A DNA stretch of 64,000 bases, taken from NCBI GenBank assembly GCA_973895155.1, contig OZ316893.1, forward strand, positions 806,860 through 870,859, read 5' to 3'. The translations under genes and the position numbers were made by a program. How positions within the stretch are numbered: position 1 is the first letter of the stretch; every line of letters begins with the position of its first letter. This DNA comes from Marsupella aquatica (lineage: Eukaryota; Plantae; Marchantiophyta). The notes below the pieces were generated by a model that had not been told where the DNA came from, ran no database searches, and saw only the letters and a program-made list of their open reading frames with translations. Positions 23,201 through 59,420 of the stretch are shown one piece after another.

Positions 23201-24039
23201 TTCTAAACCTGAGGACTTCACTTGTTTTCTTCCAATCCGTCGGGCACAAAAAAGCATAGGGTTTTTTAATTCAATTTTGCTGAAGACTAATTAGTTCCGT
23301 TGCAAAGGGGTGTATAAATGCTTGTATGTATTTATTTGTAAGCTTGAGATAAGACAATTTAGAGGACCTCTATATGCAAGTGACAAATGTCAATTGAATC
23401 TTTAATTGGTCCACATGTCACTGCATCATGTAGATAGGCTTTAGAAAGCAATTAGGGGCACAATATATGGGGGTTGTCAGTGGGAATGTTGTTGCAGCAC
23501 ATACAGGAAAGAACATGATATAGTTTAGGTGTTTTATGATGACATTTACATGTTTTCCTAAATTCTAGCTCAAGGATTTGGCACATTAAAAATTCTAGCT
23601 CAAGAATTTGACACATTTGTCCACAGGGTAAGCAAAGACATGAGTGCCTATTATGGGAGGAATACCCACATTAGGGTATGCGAGGATAGGCACAGTAATA
23701 GGTACAAGAGTAAGGGCAGGAGTTGGAGAGCTAGGTGGAGCACTAACATGGGCTCCAACAACACTCTACAACGGTACCTGTGAGGCAGCCACAAGAGCAC
23801 TGTGGTGTGAGGGGGAGACCAACAATTGTTTCTTTCACATAGAGGCTGCATTTGGCATTAAATAACTTGTGTTCAGAGTGAGCTTCAGTTGAAGACTAGA
23901 GGGATGCAACAATTCAAGCTAGGAAGCAAGCATTGTGGACAAAGGATGGCGACGTAATAAAAAAAATCAATTTGCAACAGCTAAGTTTGTGATGGTGACA
24001 AGATTGTGATATTTCTTAGTCGAGAAAGGGTTAAATCCA

Positions 24040-24560
24040 ATGAGCCTAAGATTGACAAATTTTTTCAAGTTTCAAATGAGTTTTTGAATTTCTTTGCCTT
24101 TCCAATGAGTGTGAGTCTAGGAAATTTAGATTATGAGTTCATGAATTCTTTTAGCTTTCCAATATTGAGTCCGTCATTGACAAATTCCATGTCAGATTTT
24201 GTCACGGTACTAAAGAGATCATGAGGTTTTCAATCTCTAGCTTTCTATTGTGTGACATTGATATTATTCGTCAAGAATTAGAGAGATCATGAATATCTGA
24301 ATTTCTCTAGCTTTCCAATGAACCTAACATTGATAGATTTTGCAGGTACTATGGAGATGATGAGTTTTAATTTTACTTTAGTTTTCCAATGAGTGTGACA
24401 TTGAGAGATTTTATCAAGAGAATACTAAAGAGGTCACTAATTTCTCAATCTTGATCTTGAGTTTTCCAATGAATCAAACATTGACAAATTTTATCAAGTA
24501 CTAAGGAGATTGATTATTTAGTTTTACAATGTGAAACCAAAGGGGTTTTAATTATGTACA
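24040..24560. repeat. Degenerate ~70 bp tandem repeat array
   Basis: Unit approx. TTTCTAGCTTTCCAATGAGTGTGACATTGACAAATTTTGTCAAGTACTAAAGAGATCATGAG; the CTTTCCAAT-like core recurs near 24098, 24155, 24241, 24311, 24382 and 24462. Confidence 0.75.
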
Positions 24561-24578
24561 TTTATATCGATTGGTTTT

Positions 24579-24910
24579 TGTTGAACTAAGATGTCATTCG
24601 CAACGACCATACAACCATGACTCATTCCATGCACACGTAGTCGACACAATCTCTACGTGGTTCACCTCTTCTCCAAGGCTACGTCCACACGAACACTCAA
24701 GCTTTACTTCAAGAGTAGACGAACACACATCCTCTCCCTCTTCCTCAAGTTGCTCTATTACAATCAGTAAGCACCACACACCAGCGGCTTACACTAGCCC
24801 TAGTATATACAAGGTCACACACGACTAATCTAACCTTAGCTAAGATCCTAACTGTGGTTAGCCTAAGTGCCGTAACCTATGAGTCACAAGACTAAGAGCA
24901 ATCCTTAACA
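24579..24910 (-). mobile_element. Solo LTR (Copia family related to the LTR at 35482-35830)
   Basis: TG...CA ends (TGTTGAAC/CCTTAACA), GTTTT TSD on both sides; closely similar inverted copy at 60330-60663. Confidence 0.9.
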
Positions 24911-26784
24911 GTTTTTTCAAAAGTGCAAACAATTAAAAAATACAAGCATTTTGATATAAAACACTGATATATCTTTGATAAATATCAAAATGGTAACTTT
25001 ATTTTACTAAATGACATCTCTTCCTTTATATTTTGGTTTTTTTACGTTTGATATTTATGGCATGGCACCCCAAAAATTACGTTGTTTTTGCCACAAACAG
25101 GAATGTGCATGTTTCTTATTCATTGTTAAAAGTAGGATCATTCCTGTTTGTGGCTGGTTGTGGTGATGTGGCGCAACCTTGTGACAGGGAATTTGCAAGA
25201 GACCTCTCATGGGGGTCCATAACGAGAACTATTAGATATCCTAGAAGACTCACACATGACTATTTGTGTTTGAGGCAATATAAAGAAAACAGATAGATCC
25301 CGTAATTGTAAAAACAATGGAAACTGGAAAGTAACACTTCAAATAAGCAAAGACATGGGTAGAAAAAGAGTAAAAGAGAATAATCTTTGGATGAGTTGTA
25401 ATTGATATATCAGTGTTTTCAAGGGGTTTGTATTTAATTGGCAAATTTCTTAATTTAACCATGGATAGAAAAAAAACTCTTCAGCTTCTGTAACATTTAT
25501 TACTATGGTAATGTAAGAAACTCTTGAGCTACTATGGACATAGGAATACCAAGGGCAAGTGAGAAACACTTTGGTTACTATGGAGAAAGCAATACCAAAG
25601 GAACTTAAGAAACCATTTGACTTTGATTCATAATGTTTTTGCATGGATTGTATCATAATGGAATGCTATATGAATTGCATGAACATATTAGTACCAAGGA
25701 TATGTTGTGAAAGGACTTGTACCATGAATAATCTTCTCTTTGTCTGCAATGAAATTGAATATGTTCTAACTACCTTAACACCCACTCCATTCACCATCCT
25801 CAATTTAATCTTTCTCATCTCCATAGTCAAACCAATCAGGAACTCTTCCTTGCTCTAACTTGTTGAGTAACATCAAGCTTACATAACCAAGCGGGTAACC
25901 AAGGGGTCCTCGAACTAATTCTCATGTTCAACCCACATGATGTGAGCTATATATTAAAAAAAAATGTGTTTCCCCAGAGAGATGAAACCCTAAGGGGACT
26001 GGCACTTTGATTATCAATCAAAGTGGTGGTTGCCAAATCAGAAATGGGATTTGGTTCTCCATTATCTGCGCCCAATTCATGTCAAAGGCACATGTAGTGA
26101 GTTGTTTAAAAAGACAATGTACCTTGGAGAGAACTTACATAAAAGGGAACGGACACTCCCCACTCATATTCTGTTCTAACACTAATTCATGAGCACAATT
26201 AATGTCAATTTGGGTTCAAGAGAGGAAAAACAGTGGAGAAAAACTTTGCTTTACAAAAATTTCATACTTTTTTGTACTTTTTATTTTCAATACATTCAAA
26301 CAGACCAAAAAGGCAGAAAAATTGAAAAGGTCCAAAGAAACAACGAGCCACACCCAAGGGAGCACCTAGGAATAATAGCCCCATGAGAAGGGTCATCCGA
26401 AAGGCCTAAAACATAAAGCAGTAGAGAAAACCAATTTTGAAAAATTTAAAAATTAATACCAATAACAAGAAGCCTTAAGGGATGAGTCCAAAGCCTTATT
26501 TCTCTTTTCACAATCTTCATGATATTCAAAAATGTGTACCAAAAAACCACCAAAAAATGGTATGTATTTTCCAAACTAGACTCAAGAGAATTTTACCACC
26601 AAAATCTAAGCATATCTTATATGATATTCTCACAATTGTATAAACCTTGAAATATGCACTTTATAAAAGTAGTCAAAATCAAACTCATCGATCAGAGTTT
26701 AAGTCAAACTCAAAGTTTTACAGAATATAACCCAACTTAACCCCAAGTGGTTTCAAATGCTACGAGTCCCTCTATTTACCTAGT

Positions 26785-29640
26785 CTAATCCAAAGGGACC
26801 GCTTCCCCTTCCTCGGTTCCGGAAGTCCCTGTTGTCAATTCTGGAACAATTGTGGCATCGTCAACCATGCTATCCTCTCCGGCCTGAGGAATGTCTTCCT
26901 CACTCTCCTCATCTGTCTCCCCCTGTCTGTCTTCCTCTTCAATGTTATCTGCAAGGTTAAGAATCCTCCCTTTCAACACACTGCTCTGTCGCTCGTCAAT
27001 CTCAATAGCAACGCAATGTCTCCCCATGGCCAAGGAGGAGGTTGTCCCAGTCCCTGATCCTGAACAAATATCCAAAACCCAGTCTCCAACCTGACTAAAA
27101 TGACTCACTTCCCAATCTAACAATGCACATGGTTTCTGATAGACATTCACTACCTTGTTATCCCCGGTGTGTTTCAGCTTCTTAGTCACAGCTGCGCATA
27201 CAACCACATTGTTCCTGGATTCATTTGTGTCAAAATTGAAGTGCTCCAATGACCGTTTACCATCTTGGCTGTGAAAGCCAATTGTAAAGCACTCAAAGTT
27301 GCTTTTCAATCTTGGCCCACCAGCATTCTTCACATTATCCTTAACCCTGAAAAGTCACAAAAAGTCAAGGAGTCATTTAAACTTAGAAACATGGTTCATG
27401 AAATCATGAACAACTAATAATTGTTTTTTTCAAAAACAAATATTTCTTACCACAGACAATTCTGGAACCCTCCATTACACTCCACTTTCAAAACGGTCTT
27501 GATGGCCTCATATTGGTCAAGGCTGTGGTGAATGATAATACGCCACAACTTTGCGGCTAGTAGCCACCTTGAAAGATTGGACCATTTTTGTGATCTCCTC
27601 AATTCCCCATCCAATAGTGTCCTCATGAAGACATCCAGGCAATGCAAATCCGTAGGGAATATCCACTAAAGCTAATGTGTAAGCCCAACCCGGAACCACC
27701 TCGTGTAATCGCTGAGCATCATGAGTAAAAATATCATAGTGCACGTCACCAAACTCTAGATGCTCAAAAGAATTTGGATGAAGTTCCCCCTCTTGGGTTT
27801 GCTGACTAGAAGTCTTCATGGATAGCCAATTTTGCGCTTGCACAATATGCGCATTGAATTTGTCCGGGAATGACTTGAGATCTTTGCCTTCCTCATCTCC
27901 CTTCTTTTTCCGGGAGGTGGTATCTTTCTACAAAAGGGAACCTTACAATTAGAAACAAGGATTCCAAATATTCAATGAATTCAAACAATCATTTGAAGAA
28001 AGGTGACAGAATCTTACCCATGTCTGGAAAACAGGTACGAAATTCTTAAGCACATTGTCCGTGCAATGCTCAGGGTACTTGGTTTTACAACCTGACCAAC
28101 TCTCCTCGTGTAAACATGTGAGGAAGGCCTTCTGCACCTGCATCTGAAATCTGTGTCAAGTAAATTTGTGACCCATTTCCTGTAAAGAGAGACTTTCTTT
28201 AGTAAGAACTCTCTGTAACACTGGGCAAATCATATCAGGATCTTTCAAGGCCTGCATGTGTCTCCACTCTGTTAATTTCATGTCCTCATAAGGCAATTTG
28301 GCATCTCCAGACTTAGAGACTTTCTTCTTGCCCTTATCTCCTTTTTGACCTTTGATCTCACACATCTCCCACTTGTCACAAATCTGCGTCACAAATGACC
28401 ACATAGGATCTTGTTGGAATGCCAACTCAAATAGGTTATCGTTGGCATTAAGAACCTCAACATCCTTTCGCACACCCCAATCCTTGAGATTGATTTTAGT
28501 AGCACACTCTTTCTTGAAATCCTGGTTGGACGACAATCCATTCTCCACAAATCTCATGTGAATATAATTTACTCTCTGGATTGTCGTCATCTGTTGTCAA
28601 AATTCAGAATCAATATTGTGACTCCACGCCAGGTTTCTTGCCTTTTGCACACTCAATCCCGCAAATATCCAAGATTGCACTCTCTGAAATGCCTTGTTGT
28701 TAGGGAACTGAAGAGCAAGGTCTGCTTTGGCACAGGCTGAATGGTTGCCCCCAATCACATAATAATGGTAATCAGATTTCCTTGAAAAATCAAAGTCTTG
28801 CCTAGTAGCACACTCCTTCGGATCCACCAAGAGGACAAACGGAGCTGCAAGTGGACTGGCACCTACAGTCTTCATCCGCAAGGTCAATTGGGTCAAGAAA
28901 TATGGTTGGATGTGTTGAACCTGGTAAATGGGCAAGCCCACAGCCTTCTCTCTCACTAGAGGGTAAAGTTGACCAATGTCAACCGTCACGGTCTCCTCTT
29001 GAACACCACATCTTCCCAGAATCTCCTCCTGGTACAATACTCGTGCATCCATTGACATTGATTGAGCCTTTTACTCCAAATGCATCGGAATTTTCTCCAA
29101 AGTCTTCTTTTTTGACTTTGGAGCACTGGGCTCGGCAGGCTCAGGAGTCATAGCAGGTCGCTTCTTTGAAGAAGTGCAAGTTCCAGTCGTACCTTGTGCC
29201 AACCCACCACTCAAAGCCATTCCCTAGGATGATCTACCAACTTGAGATCCCCCTCCAGATGCTGCTGCTTCACGGGAGGTTGTAGGCGCTACCACGGTCA
29301 AAATGTCATCGGGTAAAATGCTAGGCCTGGATCCAGAAGGAACACCGGAAGCCCTAGATTTGGGTGGACGACTTACCCCCTTCTTTGCCGATCTTTTTTG
29401 GAGAATCTCTCGCAATTTTTGGATTGCACTCTTTAAAGTGCTAGCATGAAATTCGAACACAAAACCAGAAATCTTTCCCGCGACGTCGTGGTAATGTTCC
29501 TCACTCAAAAGAGACTTGAGAGTCTCAATGATGCTATCGATGTCCTCATCGAGATAGCAGGTGGCAGCCATTCCGGAAAACCTCTCCACATCCACGACAA
29601 TCAAAGTTGACGTTTCCTTCGTTGTGATCAACATGTTCAC
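26785..29640 (-). pseudogene. ParB-like domain plus beta-class amino-DNA (N6-adenine/N4-cytosine) methyltransferase fusion; introns 27928-28017 and 27347-27450
   Basis: YYVIGGNHS (ParB/Srx-like motif), ALVDIPYG (motif IV, DPPY-like), YQKPCALL (motif X), GDWVLDICSGSGT..AMGRHCVAIEID (motif I), in beta order. Two GT-AG introns restore the frame (QTW|KDT; CLW|VKD). Four in-frame stops and one frameshift (~27550). The true start may lie further upstream. Confidence 0.85.
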
Positions 29641-30016
29641 AACTTTGTCGCCCCGTCAAAATACATCAATATGGGCGTAATTGACCCACCCTAATGCCCC
29701 CGATGGAAGCCCTTCAAATACACACAGCATTAGGAAGGGCTTCTTCCATGTTTCCATCCCTAAGGAAATTGTCCAGGATGAGTTGTGGAAGTCCGTCAAA
29801 GGATGGCGCGAAAAGATGTCATCCACCAGCTCTTCCTACGACATTGTCATGTTTCCCCCTGATCTTTAAAACCTGAGAACATACCACAAAATCAGTCCAC
29901 TTCAACCCCAACCTGCGAGACAAAGTGCCATAGAACCAAAGAATGTGCCAACAAATGGCTACTAAAGCCGTGTCCTTACGGATCTAACAACGCTCTCGGC
30001 CACCCCAGGACTCCTA

Positions 30017-30080
30017 TCATGAATTCATGAAGGGAGTCTCCCTCTCGCACCGACCTTCATGAATTCATGAAGGGAGTCTC
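30017..30080. repeat. Two identical 24 bp direct repeats with palindromic core TCATGAATTCATGA, between the divergent genes
   Basis: TCATGAATTCATGAAGGGAGTCTC at 30017-30040 and 30057-30080. Confidence 0.9.
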
Positions 30081-30631
30081 TTCTCTCTTTGCATGTACAC
30101 CTCGGAGATGCAGAAGGGTATTAAAAATGGGGTTCGGAGGGAGGGTGAAGTGAAGAAATCACCCAGGGTCTAAATTACTACCTAAAACAGGGTCAAAATG
30201 AAGCGCGACCACGACAACTCGCGACACGTCGCCGATGAGTGCTGAAAACGGCACAAAATTGGACAGCGAGATTGTTTTTCACTCTTTTACAAAGGAAATC
30301 CAAATGACATCGAGTGAAAATAAATGGGATGCCCTATGTTACTTGGTTATACATACTAATCACGGATCAGGCGCGACTTAGTAAAATTAACCCCAAATCA
30401 TGATAAATCAATGTTTTCGGGCCAATTATTCATGAATATTTTGGGGTATTAACGGGAAAAAGTTTGTAAATTTCATGAATATTTGATATTTTTGAAGTTA
30501 AGAAGTCCCGACAATCCGTGAAAAACTATAAATAGGCTCGTTTATTCATGACTCTTGGTCATTATTTTGAGGAGATTTGTTAGATTTTACTGATTTTTTG
30601 AGTTTCTTGTCAATTTGCACTAGTTTTTCCA

Positions 30632-33600
30632 ATGGCGGCATGTTGCAAATCAGATGATTATTCAGATGGAGTTTTTGATGATGTTTCATTGCCAGATGGC
30701 CCCTACACAGTGGTTGGCCCAGATATCCCTGGAATAACTACTATTTTAGATATGCCACCCCCCCACCCCTATGAGCAAGTTAAAATGTACTCCTTTACGA
30801 CTTGCAATTAGTGGGAAGAAATCATTGGTCGGTGGTAAGGAGAGGTCAGGGAGCTCCTTTGACTCCTTGGAGAGTATCGGTCCCCGTGGATGTCAAGTTG
30901 TGTCTCCTTTGTCACCAACAAAGGACAAATTGGGTAGTAATGTGGAAGGTTCAATGTCTATTCGGATGTCTGGGAAACGGTCTCATGAATTCATGAAGAC
31001 TGGATTTGGAAAGACGAAGAAGGTCCTAAGTGGGGCAAATGACAAAGATTTTTGCAGTCTCCAAAGTGTTCAGCGGCTTAAGCAAATGCCAAAAAGTAAA
31101 ACCTTTGGTAAGCCAACGTCGGAAACATTTCACAGGAGGATGAGGGAAGAAACTAGACGACCAGTGTTATTGAAAAGTATTCCAGAAAGGAATTCTAATG
31201 TGCGTTCCTCATTGTTACCTGGGAGTCATGGTGTTGGGGCAGGGAGCGGATCAAGTCACGGAAACTCAAACAGGGAAACCAACCCTGGTGGAGAGGGCCC
31301 CTAGGAAAATATTGAAAGGGTTCCTACACGGTAATGGAGGGATTTCTGAAATACGCCCAGGTATTCCAAGGCTGCATAGAGTGAAGAAAGAGCCTCCATC
31401 TCCGAAGGCTGCAGGTCTGGAATCTCGGGATGTTCAGAAGAAAATGTTGGTGACCATTTCATCATCGAATGATAGCGAGTCCTTGGAGAGTGAGGATGAT
31501 GATGATGTTCTGGTGGCATCTAGTTGTTACAAACGTACGAGCAACGCCACTTTGTGTGAAACAAAGTTGAAAGAGGAGGATATCAAGACAACAAATAGGA
31601 AGAATTGTTGTCAGAGTCATTGTCTCCTAAGTCTATCTCCAAAAGAAATTCGTGAGGTGCGTTCTAAATTTTTGAGGCAAAAATCTCAGGATCGATCTTT
31701 ATCTTTGCAGTGGCTTATAAAGCGAGACGGAAATGAAGGAGGGAGGCAGACTATATCTTACACGTTTGGTCAAAAGAGTATTTGTCAGAAAGCTTTCAAG
31801 CTTATATTTTGCATTGGCAATCAGAGATTAAATAGAATTTTGAAATTAGACAACCAAGACTTAGGATATTCTAAACCAGTTGGACGCTCTCCATCTGTTA
31901 AAAGATTAGTCTTGGTCAGTTGGCTTAGGTAATTTTTTGAGACACGCGTGGAAACATTGCCAAATAAAGAAGTTTCACATTTACTGGATAATTATTCAAA
32001 GCTGGAGGTATGGAAGATCTACGATTCCAACTATGCCAAGATTGATGAATCATCAAAAATATCCTATCGACAATTCTTGAAAGTTTGGGTTCAAGAATTT
32101 GGTCATGTGAAGATTCCTCCAGTCAATCGATTCAGTGCTTGCGCGGATTGCGAGGAGTTCAAATCAATTCGGGACAAAGCTGTCTCAGAGACCGAAAAGA
32201 GTAAGTTACTTACAAGTTTGACAAGTTTTTTTTTCAAGAATATGGCTTAGCACATGATTTCTATTTTTTTTTAAGAAACTAACAAGTTGTTTTTCCAGGG
32301 CGAGGGGAGATTATGTTACAAAAACATAGAGACCAACAATCCAAAGAACGTGAGAAACTCGCGAAGCATCGTAAGAAATGTTTTTCAAATCCTGATAAAT
32401 ATTTGGGAGTTGTCATTGATGGGATGGATCAAAAGAAGACAAGGTTGCCTCATTGGCCGCGTCCCCCAAAACTCGGGGGGTTGACTATCAAAAATCTTAG
32501 GAACTACGTGCGATCCAAAATAGGTATTTTTGGCAGATTTTAACTAAATTTTTAAAAAGCGTAGGAGGCAAAAGAAGGTATTATAAACTCATGTTTATAG
32601 AATATTCTTTAATATATACCCTTTATAAAGTAAAATAGGTTATTAATATTGAAAATAGAGAATATTCTTGGAATATTTTCTTTATAAAATAGGTCTATTT
32701 ATATTAGGCTAGGATCGCACGTGGTACCCCAAAATATACGCTTAGTTAACCCCCCGAGCCCCAATATTGGTGGACAAAACATGTTTGATCCAAATGCACG
32801 TTGTCGGATGCCTGGTTTTCAATGGTGCACTATTTTCAAGAGTGTTTCTTAATTATCTTGTATGGCATAATGATGGAAACTTGATAGTCACAATCCTCCA
32901 AAGGGTGTTTCACGAATGGGAAGAAAAGCCTAGTGGCTTACCGCCTGTTCTCTATCTTCAACTTGATAATACCATTAGAGAAAATAAAAATAATTTACTC
33001 TTTGCCTATCTTCATATGTTGATTCGAAGAAAGGTTTTTTGGAAAATCAAACTAGGATTCTTGTTGGTTGGACACACACACGACCAAATAGATCAAATGT
33101 TCAGTCAATTTTCTAAACGACTAGCAAGGTTTAAGGCATTCACATATGAAAGCCTATGTGATATTATTTGTGAATCATATCAACCCCAACCAAATATCAC
33201 TCTTTTAAAGGAAACATATGATTTCCGTCAATATGCCTTCTCAGATCCACCTTTAGTCATTGAAAGGATTCGAAATGTTACCTTCCACCACCAGTACAAA
33301 TTTGCATTTGACAAGTTGGAAGATCAAGTTCCAACCCAAAGGGGGAAGAAGTTTTCCACGGACTCAACTTGGAAACCTGACGGAGGCATGAAATTTTTGA
33401 GGGAAGAGGAGCCAAAAAAGGTGATGGGTTGTGCTCCCGGATTACCCCTTTTCAAAAAGGGGGATAAGAACGTTACAAGGACTAAACCAAATATGCTAGT
33501 TCTTCAAGAATGACTTTGAAGGAGATGGATGATTCGTTAAATGAGATTCAAAAGGGAATACTTGCAGTTGAAACTTTATTCTCAGAAGAGGAAGTGAACT

Positions 33601-34324
33601 GGTGGAGAATGTTTTTTGAAGAGCAGCGGGAATTGAATAAATCCTTGCTCCTTGATCAAAGACCATTGATTTTCCCTTTTCAATGGCCACATTCCCAAGG
33701 GGAGATTGTTGTTGCTGCTGAAGTTCCCAGAGTCCTTGTCAATGAAGAGGAAATTGAAGAGAGAGTATACGGACCTACCAGAGATATATACTTGGGTCCT
33801 TATCGGAATCAAGGAAAGATAGATGTAGAGAAGGAGAATATGGAAGGAGATTTTTGGATCTTGAAGTCAACACTTATATTTCTGTTGTTGGAGAAGAATC
33901 GGAAACATTTTGGGTGGCCAAGGTGGAAAGAATTGACCAGCGCGACGAGTTCAACATTCCAAAAATGATTTATGTTTCATGGCATGCTGCAAAAACCGGG
34001 TCAGATCCTTGGAAAGCCAAGTACTTACCAGAAGTCTTAAACTACGAAATGAAGAAAAGTGGTCGTGGGAAAGGAACTTTGAAACCAATATGGTTTCACC
34101 AAGAGCTTGATTTATCTTCAACGACTGTTTTTGCTTACAACTTCATGTTGACAAAATCTGATACATTGTACAAAAAGATAGTAGATCGGATCAAAATACG
34201 ATTGACTGAATTTTTGGCAAAAGAGAAAGAGCAAGAACAAGAGAATGGATCAGCTAGAACCCCACTAGGAGATAAATCTAGGGATATTTCGTTTCAAGAA
34301 TTGAGGACTTCTGGATCTGAGTAA
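30632..34324 (+). pseudogene. Sola-like DDD transposase (DUF7869-like), disrupted; intron 32201-32298
   Basis: CCQSHC...ICQKAFKLIFCI, RFSACADC, IDGMDQKK, LYLQLDNTIRENKN, FLLVGHTHDQIDQMFS. The GT-AG intron restores the frame (EKR|RGEIMLQK). Several frameshifts, a stop at 31930 and a MITE insertion. TATAAATA at ~30527. Confidence 0.85.
32472..32758. mobile_element. 287 bp MITE inserted in the transposase gene
   Basis: TIR CTCGGGGGGTTGACTA / TAGTTAACCCCCCGAG; 8 bp TSD CCCCAAAA/CCCCAATA; removing it restores the in-frame HWPRPPKLVDKTC. Confidence 0.92.
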
Positions 34325-35481
34325 TGAAAAGTAGTTATTGTTTGTGACATTACCATTGAAAAACATGGATAACTTGAAATTTTTCAAATTTTCAAAATGC
34401 CTTTACCACTTATTCATGAATTCATGGTTAAAGTTTCTTGAGAAATTTGTAGTTTAATATTTTCTTAGTGGGTTGTGTTTCAATTCAATTAGATGGTGTC
34501 ATTTCTATCCTCCTTGTCTTCTTTTCACAATAATGTGTATCAGGCTAAGTTGTAGTAGTTTATTTTCTGGTTTTCAAATCACAATGGCTTTTGGAGGTGA
34601 TTTAGTTGTCGGTTCAAGAGACAGCTCGTGTAATTGTGAGACCATTGTAGATAATAGTGTTGTATTTGAGGTCATTTATTGGTGGAATGTATTTTCAGAT
34701 GAATTTGGTCATTTTTAGGCTGTCAAAACATAACTAGTTTATGTCATATTTTGTTCGCTCCATATTTTTGTTCTAAAATAGGTGCTAGTTTTGGCACTTT
34801 TCTGACTTTTTGGTTGTTTTTCTGATTTTTTGGCTAGAGTTCCTAAAGTATGGGCTTGTTACTCATCATTTAAGGCTTCTTGTTCAATTTGGACAAGTCA
34901 AGATCACTCATTTTTTAAAAGCAGTGTAACTTAGTTCCATCTCCCTATAGAGATTCTTAATGAGAGACAAGTCCTTGGAAATATTTTTAAATGTTGTAAC
35001 AAAGTTATGTGCGGGGTCATATGCCTTGTTGCATGAGTCCTACATGACCACCTATGATTATGCGAACAAAACATATAGGATCATGGAGCAACTTGGAAGA
35101 GAAAGAATTTGCATCTCAATATTAGTGCTCATCTGGCTTCTCTCTAATTTTAAATTGTTTGTACCTTCATGATCATTGAAGCTAATTGTCTCAATTAACT
35201 CCCTCATTTTTGGACCTACGCCAGGTTGTTCCGGCGCCAACATTGACAAAATGTAGATCAATCATCTTCATACCGCAAGGTACTCCCTCACACATCGGTG
35301 CCTGCTCTGGAATTAAATGGTTTTTTCATCGTCTCCAAAATGATTTTGATAACCAAATGATCCTTTCCATGTACTCATGATTTATCTTTTACTTGTCTCC
35401 AAATCATTGTCTAATTATGAACCCAACCCAAACATGAGAATGTCATTTCCAGATTTTTTCATTCCTCTTAACATTTTATTG

Positions 35482-38400
35482 TGTTGAGCATAGACGACAT
35501 TCGCAACGACAAGCCCATGAACCATCCAACGCACAAGAGTTGACACAGAGAGATACGTGGTTCACCTCGGACACATGAGGCTATGTTCACGGGAACACAC
35601 AAGAGCTTTACTGCACTCTAGGCCGAACGGCCATACCAAACATCCATAGCGCAAGCTCTCCCTATCGCTCAACTAGCTCCGTAACAATGAGCCTAAGTTC
35701 CACCCAGGGTCTGGCATCAGCTTTGGGCTATATACACAACAGCACTACCGCTAACTTTAGCTAAGTCCTAACCCAAGTTAATCTAACTGTGGTTAGTTCA
35801 TGAGTCACAAGACTAGAGCAATATTTAACAAACTCCCCCTTGACTCTTGTCTTGGGGACTGGACTAAATGCTACCATATGGAATCCTCAACGGGAAGTTC
35901 TAGACAATCACCAAACCAAGTCTCCCCCAAAAAACCACAAGGGTTAACTAGAACTAAGCCGTAGCCAAACAGGAATGAGTAATCCATATACAAATAGTCA
36001 CACATTGCTAAATAACTCTACTTGCACTACAACTGCAAAACCTGCAAAGTAGCACGGTGTCTTGATAAACTTTCCAAATGAATCACTTTGGTAAAGGCAT
36101 CAGCGGGATTAAGTTTTCCATCAATCTTGACTAGCTCAAAAGTTTTATCAGACACTGCTTTCCTGATAAAATGGTACCTGATATCAATGTGCTTCACCCT
36201 GCTATCCATCACCTGGTTAGCAGCCAAGTGAAGAGCACTCTGACTATCACAGTTTAGAGTCATTTTGCCATGCTCTAAACCCATCTTTGCGATCAACTTG
36301 TCCAACCAAATTGCTTCCTTTGTTGCTTCTACTGCTGCAACATACTCTGCTTCTGTAGTAGACTGAGATATACACTTCTGCAAGGTAGATTTCCAACTGA
36401 TACATCCTCCTCCAAGAGTAAATACAAACCCAGTTGTAGACCTCCTTGTGTCCAGACAGCCTCCATAGTCAGAATCTACATAGCCAACTAACGTTCTATC
36501 CTGTGTTCCCTTCACATACCCGAGAATCCATTTCACAGCTTCCCAATGTATCTTCCCTGGATTTGACATGAATCTGCTAACCTTGCCCATAGATAGGGCC
36601 AACTCAGGCCTAATACAAGTCATCAAATACATCAGACTGCCTATTGCCTTCTCATAAGGAATCTTAGCCATCAGACCTTTCTCCACAGCATCTATAGGAG
36701 AGAAAGCCAATGATAACTTGAAATATGAAGCTAAAGGAATACTCACTGGCTTACAGTTTTCCATGTTGAATCGTGCAAGTACTTTTCTTGCATACTGGTC
36801 TTGACTCAAGCAGAACTGTCCAGTATCAGAGTTCCTAAAAATCTCCATCCCTAAGATCCTTTTGGCCTTACCAAGATTCTTCATCTTGAATTCAACACTC
36901 AATTTTGCCTTGAGACTGTCAACCTCAAATTGATCTTTAGCCACAATCAGCATGTCATCCACATAAATCACCATAATGATGAAACCAAATACATCATTCT
37001 TGACTGATTTCGTATACACACAAGGATCATACACCATCCTTGTAAAACCTTGAGCAAGCATGAAATCATCAAACCGCTTGTTCCACTGTCTGGGAGACTG
37101 CTTCAATCCATACAAGGACTTGAGCAATCTGCAAACTAAGTTCTCTTGGCCCTTCTTCATAAAGCCTAGTGGTTGTCTCATGAAGATCATCTCTTCCAAG
37201 TTGTCATAGAGAAAAGCAGTAACAACATCCATCTGATCCATCACCAGACCAAAAAACACAACAAACTGACACAAGATCCAAATTGTGGAATACTTAGCCA
37301 CTGGTGAAAAGACCTCATTGTAATCCACTCCTTTCTTCTGAGTGAATCCCTTGGCAACAAGCCTTGCCTTGTAGATCCTATCTCCACCCTCTGAAGGACT
37401 GTCCTTCAACTTGTAAATTCACTTGTTGTCCACCACTTGCTGACCTCTTGGATCGAAGCTCCACCAGCTCCCATGTTTTGTTGTCACTCAAAGATTGCAA
37501 CTTCCTCTGCATTGTTGCATTCCACTCATGCTTTTGCTCTGAAGCACAAGCCTCACTATACGAAGAAGGCTCTCCTTCTTCCAAGATCAAAGCCATATCA
37601 TCATCATCAGGTGCAATGTCAATATCATCTAGCTTAGATGAGTCTGCCCATTGACCATACCTGGTAGGAGCTCTAGTAGAACGACTGGAAGTTCTTCTAG
37701 TAGATGACTCAGACTGATCTGCAGTTATTGCTGGTTGAATTTGAGGTACCCAGCAACAATATGCTCCTCTTGTTCCATCGGAGGAACCAGCTCCAAGCCC
37801 GGAGCTTCTCTATCTCTCTTGTCATGAATAGCATCATGACTAATCTCCCCCTCAACCCGGTCTAGGATGAGAAATTTTCCCTTGTCAGTATGGGAGTCTT
37901 GAGAACTCTCCCCCTCCTTTGATGATCTGGATTCATTCAAAGACACATCTCTACTGACAATTAGTTTACAGGTTACTGGATCCCATAACCTATAACCCTT
38001 CACACCTTTTTGATAGCAAAAAAAATGCACTTCTTTGACTTGGACTTGAGCTTGGATCGAAGGTGGGAAGGTGTAAGCACATAAGCATCACACCCAAAAA
38101 TTCTCAGATGTGAGTAATCTGCTGGACGCCCATACCTCATTTCAAATGGCGTCTTGAATCCAATAGAACTTGATGGAGAAAAATTTACCAAATAAGCTGT
38201 AGTGTTGATAGCTTCAGTCCAAAACTCATGTGATAAGCATGATTGGCTCAACATACTCCTCAAGCGCTCCAATAGTGTTTGGTTGAGTCTCTCAGAAACA
38301 CCATTCTGTTGAGGAGTATAACTTGTTGTGAGATGGTGGGTAATCTCTTTCTCCATAGTATTCACCGTCGTCATCCGATCAAAGATATCTCACCTTATTA

Positions 38401-39149: not shown

Positions 39150-39440
39150 TTGTATAAACATCACATTGGTACTTTTTGTCAAGTACCAATGCCAGGAAAT
39201 CATAAGTTTACTAATTTTTCTAGGTTTCCAATGAGCCTCATGTTGGCAAATTTTGTCAAATGAGTAGAGACCATGAGTTTTTCAAGTTTTCTAGCTTTCT
39301 AATGTGTGACATTGGGAGTATTTGTCAAGTACTAGAGAGATCATGAGTTTCCAAATTTTTCTAGCTTTCCAATGAACGTAACATTCAAAGAGTTTGTCAA
39401 GTACTAAGGAGATGATTGGTTTTTTAATTTCTTTAAAACA
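39150..39440. repeat. ~70 bp tandem repeat array (same family as 24040-24560)
   Basis: TAGCTTTCCAATG-like cores at ~39224, 39295 and 39365 (70 bp period). Confidence 0.75.
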
Positions 39441-39947: not shown

Positions 39948-40306
39948 TGTCATGCCGAGGGACAATGCCTCTTATGCACATCAGCATGTCCCTCGCATGC
40001 CCGCTAGGTATGTAGTTAGGGCTAGTGTACTACTTGAGTTAGCAACATGTTCTTATAGCAAATGTCAGGCGTTCTTGAAGCAAACGCGCTTGTTAGTGTG
40101 ACGCCAGGACTTTGTTTACTTAGGGCATGTCTTTCTTTGTAGGTTTTCAGTTCTTCTTGAATTGCTGTTGACAGAGCTCAGACAGTACTCGTCGGTTTTG
40201 TACACGGGATTCACACAGTGATTCGTTAGATGCTCCCGACCGATCTTGGCATCCTGCCAGTTTTCGATTCGATTTCAGTATAATTGTTTCTCTTACACCT
40301 TTTATT
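39948..40306 (+). repeat. Terminal repeat A1 (359 bp)
   Basis: Highly similar to 48239-48596; similarity stops after CCTTTTATT. Confidence 0.93.
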
Positions 40307-41769: not shown

Positions 41770-43320
41770 CATGTCAGCAGACGAGCTGGGAGGTAGCAGC
41801 TCACCGCCACCAACACCCCGGTACCACTTACAGAGTGATCCACGACCGTTGGTGCCAATTTTATTGGAGTCTCGGCCATTTTGACGACGTCAGCAGACAG
41901 CAGCAGCACCCACACCACGCAATCCTTCTACTACATTTGGCAGTCGCTTCACCACTACTCCGAAGCCTGCTATCACTTCATTGCCATTTACCCCTTCTGC
42001 ATTTGTGGTTGTTCCTGCTTCACAGACATACAGCATGGACGCCAGCCACTCATCTGGCCGCATTGAACGCTTCAGCGGGCGGCCAGGCACTGTTTCTTTG
42101 CGTGAGTTCAAATCCACTTTCTACACTGTCGTTTACGAATTGGAGTTGAAATATGGCAGCAATTTCACAAATACTTTTGCATTTAAGCAGCTAGCCAGGT
42201 ATGTGCACCATGAGGCTTTGGATGTGTATGAGCAGCACTCTCAACGGCTGCTTGCTGTCATGCAATTGCCTAACCCTACCTATGCTAGTGCAATTGCGGC
42301 AGCCTCACAATTGGCCTTACAGATGCCATTGCAGCCCATGTTGCTGCTCCTGCCACTTCCCCTCCTACTCCAGTTCCTACCACGGCGCCAGTTACTCCCA
42401 CTATCTTGGCACAGGCTACATCAGGCATTTCTCCCACCATTGATTCTCCTACCTTTGCTGATCCAGTGGCTGAGTTTTTCCAGGTTCTTGAATTGGAATT
42501 CCCAATCAAGAGTGTTGACAAAATCATGCAGTTGGCCACCTTTGTGAGGCAGCGCGATAAATCATTGAAGATGATGTATCGTCGGCTTCTCAAGCTGAAG
42601 GAGGACACCCAGAGCATCACTGACCTGGAAGCTGCTCATCGTTATCTTCGCGCATTGGAGGGCACACCAACTCTCCATTCGCAAGTCTTGCAACAAGTAT
42701 TCTCAGAGTTTGGAGATAGCTACACCCTGCTCAATGTCTATGACACTGCTGAGAAACTTGAGTTGGCCCATGCACATTATGAGACCAGTATTGCGCATCC
42801 ACCGCGATCCAGGTACCAGGCTGCTGCCCCTACATTGGCCACTCCTTCCAGTGTGCCACAGTATGGTTCCAAGACCAAGCCAGCACATGCTGCTTTCATG
42901 CTGCCATCTTGAAACTACTGTGGTAACCCCAATCACAAGGCTAATGAATGTGATATTGTTACTGAGGACCTATCTTGTGATTTTTGCGGGAAAGTGGGTC
43001 ACTTGGAGGCAGTTTGTTTTGCCAAATTCCCAGAGAGGAAGCAGCTATGACAGCAGACCCCTCATCCTACTCCTGCTTCCACTCCCGATAAAGCTAGGAG
43101 GGCTCCTACTACATCAGTTGCTCCTGGCTCTTTCCAGTGGCAAAGCACCCAGTGCTAACAAATTGCCCAAGCAGCAATAGAAGCAACCAGCTCAGAAGGA
43201 GGCTCACAATGCATAGGCAACTCAACTCCAATCTCTGACTCATGAGGTTGAGCCTTACGTGCCCAACTTGCCAACATCAAAGGCAAGTCCACTGCCTCTG
43301 TTGGTCCTTCTCAACCGGCT
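41770..43320 (+). pseudogene. gag with two CCHC zinc knuckles (frameshifted)
   Basis: IERFSGRPGTVSLREFK..., then (C>stop)NYCGNPNHKANEC and CDFCGKVGHLEAVC at ~42910-43020. Boundaries approximate. Confidence 0.75.
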
Positions 43321-43326
43321 GGTCAC

Positions 43327-44835
43327 GTGCAACCCATCCCTAGCCCAGGCACCACTGACATTTCAGCACCTCTACCTCGCTCTTTCTATGGTTTGCCATT
43401 TGATGCTCATATGGGTGAGTGTGTGGTATCCTCTACTACACAGCCTGGCCTTACAGCAGACTTTTCAGATTCATTCTGCCCTTCCTATTTTGCTTACCAA
43501 CAGGCCAGTGCTGCTTCCCGTACTGCTCCCACACGCCGCATTGTACAAGCTAATGGTCTTGCTGCTGGTCCTATGACTAGAGCCAGGAGAGCTCGGGCTG
43601 TCATGCCCCAATCTTTTCAGCCACTCACACTTGCTAAAGAGCGCACCTTGTTGGCGAAGGGGGAGGGAGTTGCAGCTACATCCATTCCACCACCAGGTGC
43701 TGCTGACATTTCACAGGGAGTTGTTTCTCCTAAGCTGCTTGAGCATTTCACCTCTGATATGGCACAAAGGATTCTTACAACTCCACTTTTTAGTTGCCAT
43801 GATTTACAACTGGATGCTAGAGCCATCATCAGAGCGCTAGAGGGTTCACTGCATTCTTCATCAGCCCTTGTGACACCAGTTTTGGAGGTCCAATCTCATG
43901 TACATACTGGACCTTCTTCTTCTCCATTGCATGCTTCCACTAGCTTGGCTATCCCAGTACCAATTTCCAGTGGTAGAGAGGACAGTATTGCTGCAGATTG
44001 TTTGACCGGAGCTACACTTGATTTTGGTCATGCTGCTCCATCTTTCCTGGCTATGCTATTGAGTGGGAAGACCGTGGACACTAACTCCCTTCACAAGGTA
44101 CCTCATCATTTGCCAAAAGTGGTGCCTAGTGACAGGACTTTAGTTTCCACCACCATTGCCATTGTTGACAACAGGAATTCAGCGGTCAAGTTGGAGGGTC
44201 ACACTCCTCAGGTGGTCATGCTAGACACAGGCGCTCAACCAGTGATATTGGGCATTCAGTTTGCCAAGAAGATGGGACTGTTGACTGATCATTTACAGCA
44301 ATCCAAGTGGCACATTCGGACTGCTAGTGGCACTGTGGAGGATGTGTTGGGTGAGAGTTCTACTTTACTCACTTTTAATGGAGGTACAGATCAGGAATTG
44401 CATTTCCCAGTCAAATGTTTGGTTACCAATGCCACTACGTATGATGTGCTCATTGGCCAGGAGGCTTTGTTCCCACCAAGTTTTACCATTGACAACTGGC
44501 ATGAGCATGCCTACTATAGAGTTGATTGGCATACGGATGGCTCACACTTGGGCTACATTCCACTTGATTTTCATGGTGCTCATACACCTATGGCTCACCA
44601 TTGTGTTTTGAAAGCAGTGCACACAGCTACCTATGTCAACCACCCATTGCAGGATTGGATTGAGGAGGATGATGTTGAGGTGGTTGCTGCACATGCTGTT
44701 GCACGTATAGCAGCACTTTCCATCAATGTGGATCATCAACCAGAGGTGGTACAATGGCTCCAAACAGCCCATGGACCTTTGGTGCTGCATTGCGCAAATT
44801 TGAGGACCTTGGGCAGCACAATGGACAACCAATAG
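43327..44835 (+). pseudogene. pol N-terminal part with aspartic protease
   Basis: VMLDTGAQPVILG (DTG active site), IRTASG, YDVLIGQE. Confidence 0.85.
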
Positions 44836-44882
44836 CCCCAATCTTGAGCGCACCAATTACATGGACTCCTCCTCCGGCTGGC

Positions 44883-45850
44883 CTTACATTGCTTGAGCTT
44901 TAATTTTTGGTGGCATTTCTACAGGCTTGGAAGCTCTCCTACAGTCCGGCATGGTGGTGAAGCAGTACATCTACATGGACATTGATCCAGGTGCAAGGCA
45001 AGTGGTTGAATCCCGTCTGCTGGAATTTTCAGAGCGATTTCCCCAGCAGTTTCCACACAGTGCATGGAAGTCTGCATTTTCTTTCTTCCCTCCAGATATC
45101 CAGCTTGTCCAGCACCGGCACTTAACCCTTCTTGGCTCCCTTGATTTGATCATAGCTGGTTGGGAATGCCAAGGGTTTTCAGCTGCTGGTCACGGTGCTG
45201 GACTGCATGATTCTCGTTCTGGCCTTTTCACAGCATTGGTTCAGGTTCTCACCTGGGCTCAAGCCCTCTACCCTGCTGTTGGTTATATCATTGAGAATAC
45301 TCCCTCTCAGTTTGACCAACGTCCACAGGTCAAAGAGGATTTCAGTGTGGTCCAACACTACTTGGGATCACCCCTTCTCATTGATGCAGTGCACTGTGGT
45401 TCTTATGCACATCGTCTTTGTAACTTTTGGACTAACCTTGCACCACCTTCCTTGCTGGAGTTAGCTCTTCACCACACATCCAGGCACACTAACCTCACAG
45501 TGGACCAGATTTTGGATCCTGACAGTTCTTGCCAACCAGTTACACGGCAAGAGCCAACACCTTGGTATCCAGCAATACCATTGGACAGCCCCGTGCTGCT
45601 TGGCCTACATTTGTATCCTTTCCAGGTGCACATGCCTTTCAGGGTGATGGTCCTGGCCTGGTTTATCGACATTCTACCGGTACTTGGGATGAACCTAGTT
45701 CTGAGGAGAGAGAACGGGCTATGGGCTTCCAATCCGGTACTACAGGCCACACCCACATCACCAGGCTGGCCATGAATGCTTTACTTGGCAGGGTAATGGA
45801 TCTTAATGCTCTCACTTGGCTTCTGGTCACTTGCATCCTTTTTCAGAGGA
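44883..45850 (+). pseudogene. DNMT3-like cytosine-C5 DNA methyltransferase domain within pol
   Basis: Motif I LLEL[5 nt insertion]FGGISTG, II MDID, IV LIIAGWECQGFS, V RSGLF, VI IIENT, VIII HRLCNFWTNL, IX ERERAMGF, X LLGRVMD; frameshift at ~45570. Confidence 0.92.
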
Positions 45851-45860
45851 ATGCATCCTT

Positions 45861-46450
45861 CCTACTGATGTTCACACTCTCAGGAGCTTTATTGGGTTGT
45901 GCAATTACTACCGGATCTACATCAAAGATTTCAGTACCATTGCACACCCATTGTACTCTTTGTTGAAAAAGAATGTGCCTTGGACATGGAGTACAAATGC
46001 TGAGGTAGCATTTGCCACTTTGAAGGAGAAGCTCTCAGAATACCCAGTGCTGAGAAGACCTGATTTCAGCAAGGTCTTTGTGCTACACACAGATTGGAGT
46101 GCCCTTGGGATTGGTGCCATTCTGGGCCAGCATGATGAGGAAGGTAAAGAGTACGTCATTGCCTATGCATCTAGGAGCAACAATCAGGCAGAGAGTCATT
46201 ATTCTTCTTATGAGGGTGAATGCCTTGCTGTTGTGTGGGCTATCATACATTACAGGCCCTACCTCTATGGGACCAGGTTTGTTCTCTACACCGACCACCA
46301 GCCCTTGAAGTGGTTGATGACCAACGACAAGCTTACTGGCAAGCTTGCTCGTTGGGCGCTCATACTCCAGGAGTATGATTTTGAGGTAATTCATAGGCCT
46401 GGTGTGACACATCAAAATGCTGACACTATATCCCGCAGCCCTTTGATTGC
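45861..46450 (+). pseudogene. RT thumb/connection and Ty3/Gypsy RNase H
   Basis: LRSFIGLCNYYRIYIKDFSTIAHPL, FVLHTDWS, YEGECLAVVWAI, YTDHQPL, LARWALILQEYDF, NADTISR. Confidence 0.93.
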
Positions 46451-46559
46451 CTCTGATGATCCCTCAGATGCACAGCAGGATTTTGACCAGGTTTCCATCC
46501 TGCCTACATTTCATGCATCTAGCTACCTATCTTGCTGTGCTGCCATGCTACATTGTTGA

Positions 46560-48021
46560 CCAACCTGTGGTGGACATATGGGAGGACAGCGACACTCTGA
46601 GATTTCTGCAGCATGGGGAGTACCCCACCCATGTTACTGCTGCCCAGAGAGACCAAATTCAGCAAAGGTCCAAGCGCTACTTGTGGAAGGGAGATCATCT
46701 TGTGCGTTGCTTGCCAGACAGGGAAGTGGTGGTTCCACCCATTCATGAGAGGGTTGGCCTTATCCGTAAGGTACATTCTGAGCTTGGTCATTTTGGTGTT
46801 AAGAGGACTTACAGCCTCTTAGTCCCCCATTATCATTGGAGAGGCATGCATGGCCAGGTTCGAGATGTTATTGCCAGGTGTGAGCAATGTGATAGGGTGA
46901 GGACTTCTTTCACATCTCGGCAACCCACACTTCATCCACTCCCTATGCAGGGCATGTTTTATCGTTGGTCATGTGATTTGGCTGGAGAATTACCCCTCAC
47001 ATCTCGGGGTAATCTCTCGGGGTATGATCATGATAGAGCATTTCTCCAAGTGGATAGAACTTGTGGCATTGCCGGATAAGACCTCCCGTAGCACCAGCCA
47101 GGCATTCCTGCAACAAGTTCTCAGCCGCTTTGGAGCTTGTGCAGAATGTCTCACTGACCAGGGCTCAGAGTTTAGAGGAGAGTTCCAGGAGCTGCTTGAT
47201 CAGGCCCTCATTGATCATCGTCGGACATCACGAGATCACCCACAGGCAGATGGCTTGGCAGAGCGCATGGTTCAAACATGCAAGAAGGGCCTTCGGAAGA
47301 TCTGCCTCACCAAAAACAAGGAGGATTGGGACCTGGCCTTACCCTACATTGCCATGGGGTATAGGATGTCTAGACATGCATCACTGTCTAACTTTTCTCC
47401 CTACTTCTTGTTGTTTGGTCGTCACCAGTTCCACCTTCTGCTATTGCTGCTCACATGCTTCAGGTGGTGGACTTGGATTCAGCTGTGACTTGGTCTGATG
47501 TGATCTCTGAGAGGGCTGGCCTATTCAGGAGGGTTATGCCCATGGCCATGGAGAATTTGGCCATTGCACAGCACAGGGACACACTGCGTTATGCACACAC
47601 ACGAGGGGGCACTTTTCAGCCCAAGGTCAGGAAGTTTGATGTGGGAGATTTTGTGTACTTGCAGCGGCAAGCTAACGACACCCTGGACACCTCTACTAGT
47701 CGTACTATTCTCAGGGTTAAAGCTATTCGACCGTCTGGAGTGCTAGAGTTACAAGGGGCAGATGGGCGCATAATTGCTGACAATGCCAAGAACTGCGCCC
47801 CTTGTCATCTGCCTAACCTGGATCCCACCATTGTGACTTCTACTTGGATTCCACCTGTGGACTACCCTTGCAAAGTGTGTTTGCGAATTGATGATGCTGA
47901 CCAGATGCTGCTGTGTGACAATTGCAATGGAGGGTACCATCTTTTCTGCCTTCGGCCTGAACTTACCCAAGTGCCAGAAGGGTTATGGTTTTGCCCTTCC
48001 TGTGCTCCACGTGCTACCTGA
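46560..48021 (+). pseudogene. DDE integrase with HHCC, GPY/F-type region and C-terminal PHD finger (frameshifted)
   Basis: HSELGH...CEQC; WSCDLAG, LTDQGSEF, GLAERMV; KFDVGDFVYL; CKVC..LLCDNCNGGYHLFC..WFCPSC (C4HC3). Confidence 0.92.
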
Positions 48022-48060: not shown

Positions 48061-48772
48061 ATACAGAGGTTTACACCTCCACTACATACATACCACTTCA
48101 TTTCCTTTTTCTTGGCACTTGTGAATGTGATTGGACTTTTTCTATGCATGTTGGTTGCTAGCAGCTTGCACATATGCCTTGCCGGTGACTTATATGTTTT
48201 CGATACACTATGGCTACGATACTATATGTCACGACAGTTGTCATGCCGAGGGACAGTGCCTCTTATGCACATCGGCATGTCCCTCGCATGCCCGCTAGGT
48301 ATGTAGTTAGGGCTAGTGTACTACTTGAGTTAGCGAATGTTCTTATAGCAAATGCTAGGCGTTCTTGAAGCAAACGCGCTTGTTAGTGTGACGCCAGGAC
48401 TTTGTTTACTTAGGGCATGTCTTTCTTTGTAGGTTTTCAATTCTTCTTGAATCGCTGTTGACAGAGCTCAGACAGTGCTCGTCGGTTCTGTACACGGGAT
48501 TCACACAGTGATTCGTTAGATGCTCCCGACCGATCTTGGCATCCTGCCGGTTTTTGATTCAATTTCAGTACAATTGTTTCTCTTATGCCTTTTATTATAC
48601 AGAGGTTTACACCTCCACTACATACATACCACTTCATTTGCTTTTTCTTGGCACTTGTGAATGTGATTGGACTTTTTCTATGCATGTTGATTGCTAGCAG
48701 CTTGCACATATGCCTTGCCGATGACTTATATGTTTTCGATACACTATGGCTACGATACTATATGTCACGACA
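48061..48772 (+). repeat. B1-gt-A2-B2 right-end repeat block
   Basis: 176 bp B at 48061-48236 and 48597-48772; GT spacer 48237-48238; A2 48239-48596; G7 tract immediately before B1. Confidence 0.93.
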
Positions 48773-49549: not shown

Positions 49550-49870
49550 CAATTTTTTGTCAAATGCTAAAGAGATTATAAATTTTTAATTTTATCTAAC
49601 TTTCCAATAAGTGTGATATTGAAAGATTTTGTCAAAACAATACTAAAGAGATCATAAGTTTCTAAATCTTTCGAGCTTTCCAATGAATGTAACATTGACA
49701 AATTTCATCAAAATACTAAGAAAATTTATTATTTAGTTTTAAAGTGTGGAGCCAAAAGAGTTTTAACTATTTACATTTCTGTCAATTGATTTTTCCAAAC
49801 TTGCGAACTATTGAAAAAGACAAGTAAAATACTGATCTATCATTGACAAGATATCAGAATGATAACTTTG
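49550..49870. repeat. Continuation of the ~70 bp repeat family and its downstream flank
   Basis: Same units. 49700-49870 matches 24480-24578 plus 24916-25000, i.e. the site without the solo LTR. Confidence 0.75.
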
Positions 49871-59037: not shown

Positions 59038-59382
59038 TTTTAAGATTTACTCTTAGGTCTAGAGTTACGACTGTACCATAGTTAAGGCTAACCTTAGTCA
59101 CAGACTTGGTTAGGTTAGTCATGATGTGCACACTCTATAACCAAGCGGTGTTTGCTTGGAGAGTGGGAACTCAGGCTCATTGTTACGGAGCTAGTTGAGA
59201 GATAGAGAGAGCTTGCGCTATGGATGCTTGGTATGGTCGGTCGGCCTAGAGTGCAGTAAAGCTCATGTGTGTTCCCGTGGACGTAGCCTCATGTGGAGGT
59301 GAACCACATATCTCTCTATGTCAACTCTTGTTTGTTGGATGGTTCATGTGCTTGCCATTGCAATTGTCGTCTATGCTCAACA
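59038..59382 (+). mobile_element. Solo LTR of the Copia family at 35482
   Basis: Ends GTCGTCTATGCTCAACA (reverse complement of the 35482 end); CACTT TSD at 59033-59037 and 59383-59387; 5' TG mutated. Confidence 0.85.
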
Positions 59383-59420
59383 CACTTCACAACATCAGGT
59401 ATGGGATCAACAAAACATAT

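Follow-up and report, generated by a model that had tools for sequence, protein, structure and literature searches.

Transposon superfamilies are defined by the convergence of their transposases (PMC4455052), and a moss Sola1 element appears in the table of a review (PMC9033089). Sola1-1_Ec32 of Ectocarpus, a DDE element described in 2025, has a length of 21.5 kb, terminal inverted repeats (TIRs) of 282 bp and a 4-bp target-site duplication (TSD). It carries an opposite-strand gene with ParB-like and N4C/N6A methylase domains, for which a self-marking role was proposed (PMC12477816). In Bostrychia and Chondrus, the Plavaka and Mutator genes PAG2 and PAG3 comprise a transposon-borne PF01555 methylase and a ParB-like domain, and inverted-repeat arrays beside the ParB-like PAG3 of Bostrychia Plavaka were proposed as ParB sites (bioRxiv 10.1101/2025.02.11.637652). 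Here, we analysed a 64,000-nt window of the liverwort Marsupella aquatica (contig OZ316893.1), in which all coordinates below are given. The window holds, at 26464–34884, a decayed copy of a multi-copy cut-and-paste transposon, in which a DUF7869-type transposase gene is accompanied by a divergent gene, hereafter the cargo gene, for a predicted fusion of a ParB-like domain and a beta-class DNA amino-methyltransferase.

The design of this element has already been published, and the family in the window is a land-plant member of it with a predicted function. A first-pass annotation of this DNA had stated that Sola elements are usually described with a transposase only, to which Sola1-1_Ec32 is an exception. 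Compared with the Ectocarpus element, the window element is shorter (8.4 kb) and has shorter TIRs (32 nt); its termini begin with AACAA instead of AACCG, so that the first three of the five listed bases agree. Its duplication, CAAT, does not end in A, toward which the TSDs of Sola1-1_Ec32 are biased, and its accessory protein, likened by domain content, has about 955 residues instead of 1104. It further differs in its land-plant host, a defined palindrome and an N-terminal domain that weakly resembles the pleckstrin homology (PH) fold. PAG2 and PAG3 differ in their EnSpm/Plavaka transposase and in being separate genes, with methylase-SET and ParB-2-oxoglutarate oxygenase fusions. No report of such an element from a land plant was found in the literature searched, with Repbase, subscription papers and several supplements outside that search. 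The new features are the palindrome TCATGAATTCATGA, the weakly PH-like N-terminal domain and a ParB domain lacking the arginine after GGNH.

The element is flanked by CAAT on both sides (26460–26463 and 34885–34888). Its left TIR (26464–26495, + strand, first bases AACAA) and right TIR (34853–34884, − strand, last bases TTGTT) form inverted arms of 32 nt each that are 84% complementary, with the outermost 15 nt exact. The 8.4-kb unit between the duplications encloses both the DUF7869 transposase gene and the divergent three-exon cargo gene; a transposase gene and a head-to-head gene between these ends had been proposed in the first-pass annotation. Seven exact inverted pairs of at least 15 nt were found in 20001–41000, one of which (not named in the output) has a 4-bp flanking repeat; 30 dinucleotide shuffles of this region gave a mean of 0.47 such pairs, none with a 4-bp flanking repeat. 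Six public sequencing runs hold part of the stretch, and contig depth was examined in four of them (X1, X3, X5 and X6); the summed depth per bin is no copy number. At the left edge, the depth in X1/X3/X6 is 89/56/0 in the bin 26127–26453 and 15158/2844/96 from 26454. It remains high across both genes and drops to 1800/351/58 past 34955. Single-locus contigs of the left flank stop at 26488 (X1) and 26487 (X3), 24–25 nt within the left TIR. The depth in X5 is low and uneven, with peaks at conserved stretches of both genes. Because three of the four runs show this high depth across the two genes and a drop at either end, the 8.4-kb unit behaves as one repeat family. The TIRs, which are a feature of Sola transposons, and the 4-bp duplication of Sola1, here seen at one insertion only, suggest that the transposon is Sola1-like. 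No sequence-level test for Sola was found by a term search in PMC7466625 or in the accessible parts of PMC5751038 and PMC4455052.

The cargo gene extends from about 29850 to 26785 on the − strand and consists of three exons with about 955 codons. Exon 1 (28018–29850, 611 codons), delineated from its sequence and the fold of the homologue P0003, encodes in order an N-terminal beta/alpha domain, a disordered basic linker, a ParB/Srx-fold domain and a helical region. Exon 2 (27451–27927), which shares 58% identity over 129 aa with the annotated Calypogeia fissa protein P0022, contains the catalytic motif IV (DIPY). Exon 3 (26785–27346; 66% identity to P0022) contains motif X (YQKP), motif I (DICSGSGT), an acidic tail and the stop codon. 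The intervening GT-AG introns of 90 nt (27928–28017) and 104 nt (27347–27450) are probably spliced, as judged from homology and DNA contigs. P0022 spans both junctions uninterrupted, in agreement with the spliceosomal introns of the first-pass annotation, and 12 of the 20 exon-1 homologues called from unspliced DNA stop right after the same W-V at intron 1. The X5 contigs lose their match at 27353 and 27446, the edges of intron 2. Exon 1 contains six in-frame stops (29838, 29658, 29226, 29073, 28599 and 28158), and exon 2 has a one-base frameshift near 27557, where the X1 and X5 contigs are without one letter; the cargo copy in the window is therefore a pseudogene. Because this copy is broken, folds were predicted for its relatives P0003 (51% identity to exon 1) and P0022.

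The methyltransferase motifs DIPY (27652–27663), YQKP (27130–27141) and DICSGSGT (27049–27072) are located on the − strand; the first-pass annotation had listed DIPY, QKP and DxCSGSGT together with GGNH. The catalytic motif IV precedes the S-adenosylmethionine (SAM)-binding motif I (IV-X-I), which is the order of the beta class, and the match of the cargo to PF01555 passes the cut-off (E 9.7e-8). The P0022 model (predicted local distance difference test score of 90) has CcrM as its best fold match (E 3.2e-12), followed by BceJIV, N4CMT and MboIIA; N4CMT ranks fifth and PvuII twelfth. A sequence search also places CcrM first (E 0.0064). Among 155 domain alignments, 72 cover motif IV; D is the first residue in 65 of them, and SPPY is present in none. 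The three residues of QKP are kept in 97, 99 and 92 of 104 alignments, and the D and two G of motif I in 88, 89 and 89 of 97. The model and motifs indicate that the cargo has the fold of a beta-class DNA amino-methyltransferase, as had been claimed from the letters alone. Adenine is favoured as the target base of the presumed methylation; the lean to N6-adenine in the first-pass annotation is supported by the absence of SPPY and by the CcrM match.

CcrM, M.MboIIA, M.RsrI, M.BceJIV and the phage methylases of phrog_67 and phrog_498 share the fold and the IV-X-I motif order with the cargo, from which the CcrM-type enzymes differ at 13–22% identity in the fold search. A phage search gave 574 records, and the 20 listed genes match the methylase part only, with 23–29% identity. 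No close prokaryotic donor was found among these fold matches or listed phage genes. Land plants have few adenine methylases, and phage ParB-terminase methylases exist (PMC4738411). The bdelloid N4CMT and Marchantia DN4MT1 are, like the cargo, eukaryotic beta-class amino-methylases of bacterial type, but they are domesticated host genes with SPPY/TSPPY that make N4-methylcytosine (4mC) and are without ParB (PMC8885841, bioRxiv 10.1101/2021.02.12.428880). Kinship with these SPPY-type enzymes was ruled out on the motif.

The GGNHS motif of the cargo is located at 28738–28752 on the − strand. In the P0003 model, an ordered N-terminal domain is joined by a disordered linker to a ParB-like domain. 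In a Foldseek search with the latter, the top nine hits, which are all the matches at E ≤0.001, are ParB/Noc proteins. The best VIA match is PadC (Z 9.5, root-mean-square deviation 3.0, 96 aligned residues), and KorB has a Z of 7.7 over 193 residues. These models indicate that the central domain has the ParB N-terminal fold, so that structure prediction upholds another claim of the first-pass annotation; no ParB match by sequence was found in Pfam or PHROGs. Bacterial ParB, Noc and KorB resemble the cargo in this fold and in their cis palindromes (parS), but the cargo has no ParA, is fused to a methylase and has GGNHS in place of GxxRxxA, the arginine motif that forms the CTP pocket of canonical ParB (PMC10419367). 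The correspondence between GGNHS and GxxRxxA was read from the motifs. An arginine after GGNH (GG-x-H-R) is present in none of the 33 ParB motif matches. Because this arginine of the canonical ParB CTPase is missing, the ParB domain may be a module for both dimerisation and binding and not a CTP-driven clamp. The N-terminal domain gives weak PH-fold matches only (Z 4.4–5.7 with VIA on the P0003 model), within the chance range. Identity to P0003 is 64% in the ParB part, 65% in the helical part and 19% in the linker, an unevenness that is as expected from selection on the protein.

The gap between the two divergent genes (29851–30631) is a putative shared promoter region, judging from the gene layout. 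It contains four TCATGA half-sites (30398, 30430, 30473 and 30546) and, within 30017–30070, two exact palindromes TCATGAATTCATGA (starts at 30017 and 30057), which are candidates for binding or methylation. Further copies of TCATGAATTCATGA are located in intron 2 of the cargo gene (27396–27409), in the 5′ part of the transposase gene (30983) and past the transposase gene (34414). All five window matches at ≤1 mismatch are inside the element, and two more at two mismatches are outside; the shuffle mean for all seven is 0.47. The palindrome TTCATGAA occurs eight times in the element versus 0.5 expected (P 6e-8), which places it first of 256 palindromic 8-mers, and these eight are among 11 copies in the window.

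A search with P0022 gave 410 representatives at E ≤0.001. Among 148 new representatives listed, at least 20 also match the profile of the ParB-plus-helical part, and six of the seven long matches tested have the ParB-like profile and PF01555 together, the named ones being from Chara, Ginkgo and Riccia. Chara braunii, Riccia sorocarpa, Adiantum nelumboides and Ginkgo biloba have named members of the cargo family, and the fusion recurs in all four. Calypogeia, in which both halves of the ParB-methylase fusion were found, provides the closest named relative, from which a liverwort or another bryophyte would be the likely host. In the tree, the grouping of the window copy with Calypogeia and metagenome proteins is not strongly supported. 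No co-evolution of cargo and transposase is claimed, as the pairs are too few and the transposase tree has three wrongly bounded Riccia rows. In Riccia, the cargo gene R1sor_010796 sits between the DUF7869 genes 010795 and 010797, for which the chance expectation is about 0.03 (39 listed transposase loci, at least 26,671 loci and 10 cargo loci). Another Riccia cargo gene is five loci from a listed transposase. P0003 and the transposase relative P0235 both list a Logan contig of 8829 nt, possibly one and the same. One exon piece, used to scan metagenomes, matched a single, unrelated-looking locus (L001). Four long single-ORF (open reading frame) members on 3–4 kb metagenome contigs (P0115, P0136, P0211 and P0218) have long branches where tested, and motif IV of P0136 is the canonical DPPY; they are possibly algal or protist elements nearer the source of the fusion.

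The transposase gene (30632–34324, + strand) matches Pfam PF25273 (E 4.7e-51). This is the DUF7869 family, which we take to be linked to Sola transposases. The N-terminal part is Cys-rich, and three acidic motifs are present (IDGMDQ at 32415, LQLDN at 32956 and GHTHDQIDQ at 33070). An intron is predicted from the sequence at 32201–32298 (+ strand). The gene is damaged by a stop at 31930, by frameshifts near 30758, 31283, 33495 and 33850, and by the insertion of a miniature inverted-repeat transposable element (MITE). The MITE (32472–32758, 287 nt) has 16-nt inverted ends and is flanked by the near-perfect 8-bp duplication CCCCAAAA/CCCCAATA, a length from which we assume it to be hAT-like. It is missing from other copies of the element, as contigs of X1 and X3 join 32471 to 32770, and the depth at the MITE exceeds that of its host element in all four runs. 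Sequence search found 44 relatives of the transposase: metagenome proteins with up to 67% identity, 18 proteins of Riccia sorocarpa and one of Adiantum. The intact relatives P0233–P0236 share 66–67% identity with the window gene. A C-terminal domain (FWVAKV...VSW, 33758–34324, + strand) is conserved among the relatives, and comparisons with Pfam and Atlas gave no name for it; UniRef labels two of the Riccia relatives as BAH-domain proteins, which suggests a possible chromatin reader. A GTDB scan found three short contigs from two bacterial metagenome-assembled genomes (L002–L004), which have distant, interrupted DUF7869-like transposase genes without a cargo match and are too short and distant to weigh against the linkage of the two genes. 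These genes have a eukaryotic appearance and are possibly contaminants from binning. Neither the cargo nor the transposase alignment found a match in viral scans.

In intact copies, the cargo protein would likely bind the palindromes of the element and likely add N6-methyladenine (6mA) there, controlling expression or transposition; we regard the case for this self-marking function as evenly balanced. The 0.8-kb gap would drive both genes, and the protein of about 955 aa would bind TCATGAATTCATGA via its ParB and helical parts, like ParB on parS. The methylase would mark adenine at or near the palindromes. The mark or the bound protein would then keep the promoter usable despite silencing of transposons by host 5-methylcytosine (5mC) or, alternatively, would time the action or access of the transposase. 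We put forward more tentatively, and with some doubt, that self-methylating transposons of this kind occur across streptophytes (Chara, liverworts, ferns and Ginkgo), combining a ParB-derived reader at promoter TCATGAATTCATGA with a fused 6mA writer as a shield from 5mC silencing. In land plants, such elements would be a source of adenine methylation that is site-specific and confined to transposons. That DNA transposons carry proteins for binding and methylating their own DNA has already been proposed in print, and the window family would extend this idea to land plants; it offers a compact element together with many relatives that look intact and a palindrome as candidate target. An active cargo protein would amount to a programmable-looking fusion of reader and writer and would supply plant genomes with a real, local 6mA source.

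Several observations weigh against this self-marking function. Both genes of the window copy are broken, so this copy itself writes no mark. The ParB domain lacks the arginine described above, and the target base cannot be read from the D-x-P-Y motif; specificity has switched repeatedly among PF01555 enzymes (PMC8885841), and N4CMT and PvuII are close behind CcrM in the fold search. The retro-DAMs, a different class of adenine methylases carried by retrotransposons, yielded no 6mA in E. coli (bioRxiv 10.64898/2026.05.21.726589). The palindrome was first spotted in a repeat list and tested afterwards, and one of its copies falls in coding sequence. The incomplete list of 39 transposases includes no direct neighbour for nine of the 10 named cargo genes of Riccia.

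The cargo might instead be a transposition accessory that acts mainly by binding, in which ParB bridges or loads and the methylase domain serves to bind DNA or flip bases, transferring methyl groups little if at all. Such a role would suit the non-canonical DIPY, the missing ParB arginine, the silence of the retro-DAMs in E. coli and the many degenerate cargo copies in databases, and the methylases of DIRS elements have been called likely inactive (PMC4738411). However, the SAM-binding and catalytic motifs are retained from Chara to Ginkgo, and the beta-class fold is complete in the model; we consider a mainly binding role unlikely. It is rather improbable that the enzyme is active but makes 4mC, or that its substrate is single-stranded DNA, RNA or the host genome at large instead of its own element, because the 4mC enzymes N4CMT and DN4MT1 have SPPY or TSPPY, whereas all 72 alignments lack SPPY, and the N6-adenine enzyme CcrM is the top match in both sequence and fold. 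What speaks for this activity is the presence of N4CMT and PvuII among the fold matches, the inclusion of both marks in PF01555 (PMC8885841) and the 4mC of liverwort sperm, which is made by beta-class enzymes (bioRxiv 10.1101/2021.02.12.428880). As a passenger, the cargo would be a host gene that the element captured in a Pack-MULE-like manner and that does nothing for it, which would fit its introns and the fact that few of the named cargo genes of Riccia, Chara and Adiantum could here be tied to a transposase. This is very improbable, given that the depth is no lower over the cargo than over the transposase in X1, X3 and X6, that several divergent cargo copies occur per genome, that the brown alga element has the same layout and that conservation is domain-specific. 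Two unrelated neighbouring elements with inverted ends arisen by chance are scarcely credible: although no contig across the entire element is among those listed in the four runs and the TSD was observed once, none of the 30 shuffles contains an exact 15-nt inverted pair flanked by a 4-bp duplication, the steps in depth are found at the two ends with none between the genes, and the two genes adjoin in Riccia.

The transposon is adjoined by a Copia-type element (35480–37418, − strand; RVT_2, E 3.8e-59), whose end at 35482 shows very high depth, with 197 different flanks in X1, and inverted copies related to it are located near 59166–59384. A broken Gypsy-type long terminal repeat retrotransposon occupies 41885–48018 (+ strand), with a direct repeat at 39948–40306 and 48239–48596. 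Its protease and RNase H flank a domain of the C5 cytosine methyltransferase type (PF00145, E 3.7e-6, 44897–45772), and a PHD finger (E 2e-12) is present at the C terminus. Retrotransposons bearing a DNA methyltransferase are known in charophytes and dinoflagellates, and the accessible part of that report names no land-plant case (PMC5890265). Three arrays of an AT-rich repeat of about 71 nt (24031–24579, 39154–39435 and 49556–49794) are perhaps the ends of another transposon family.

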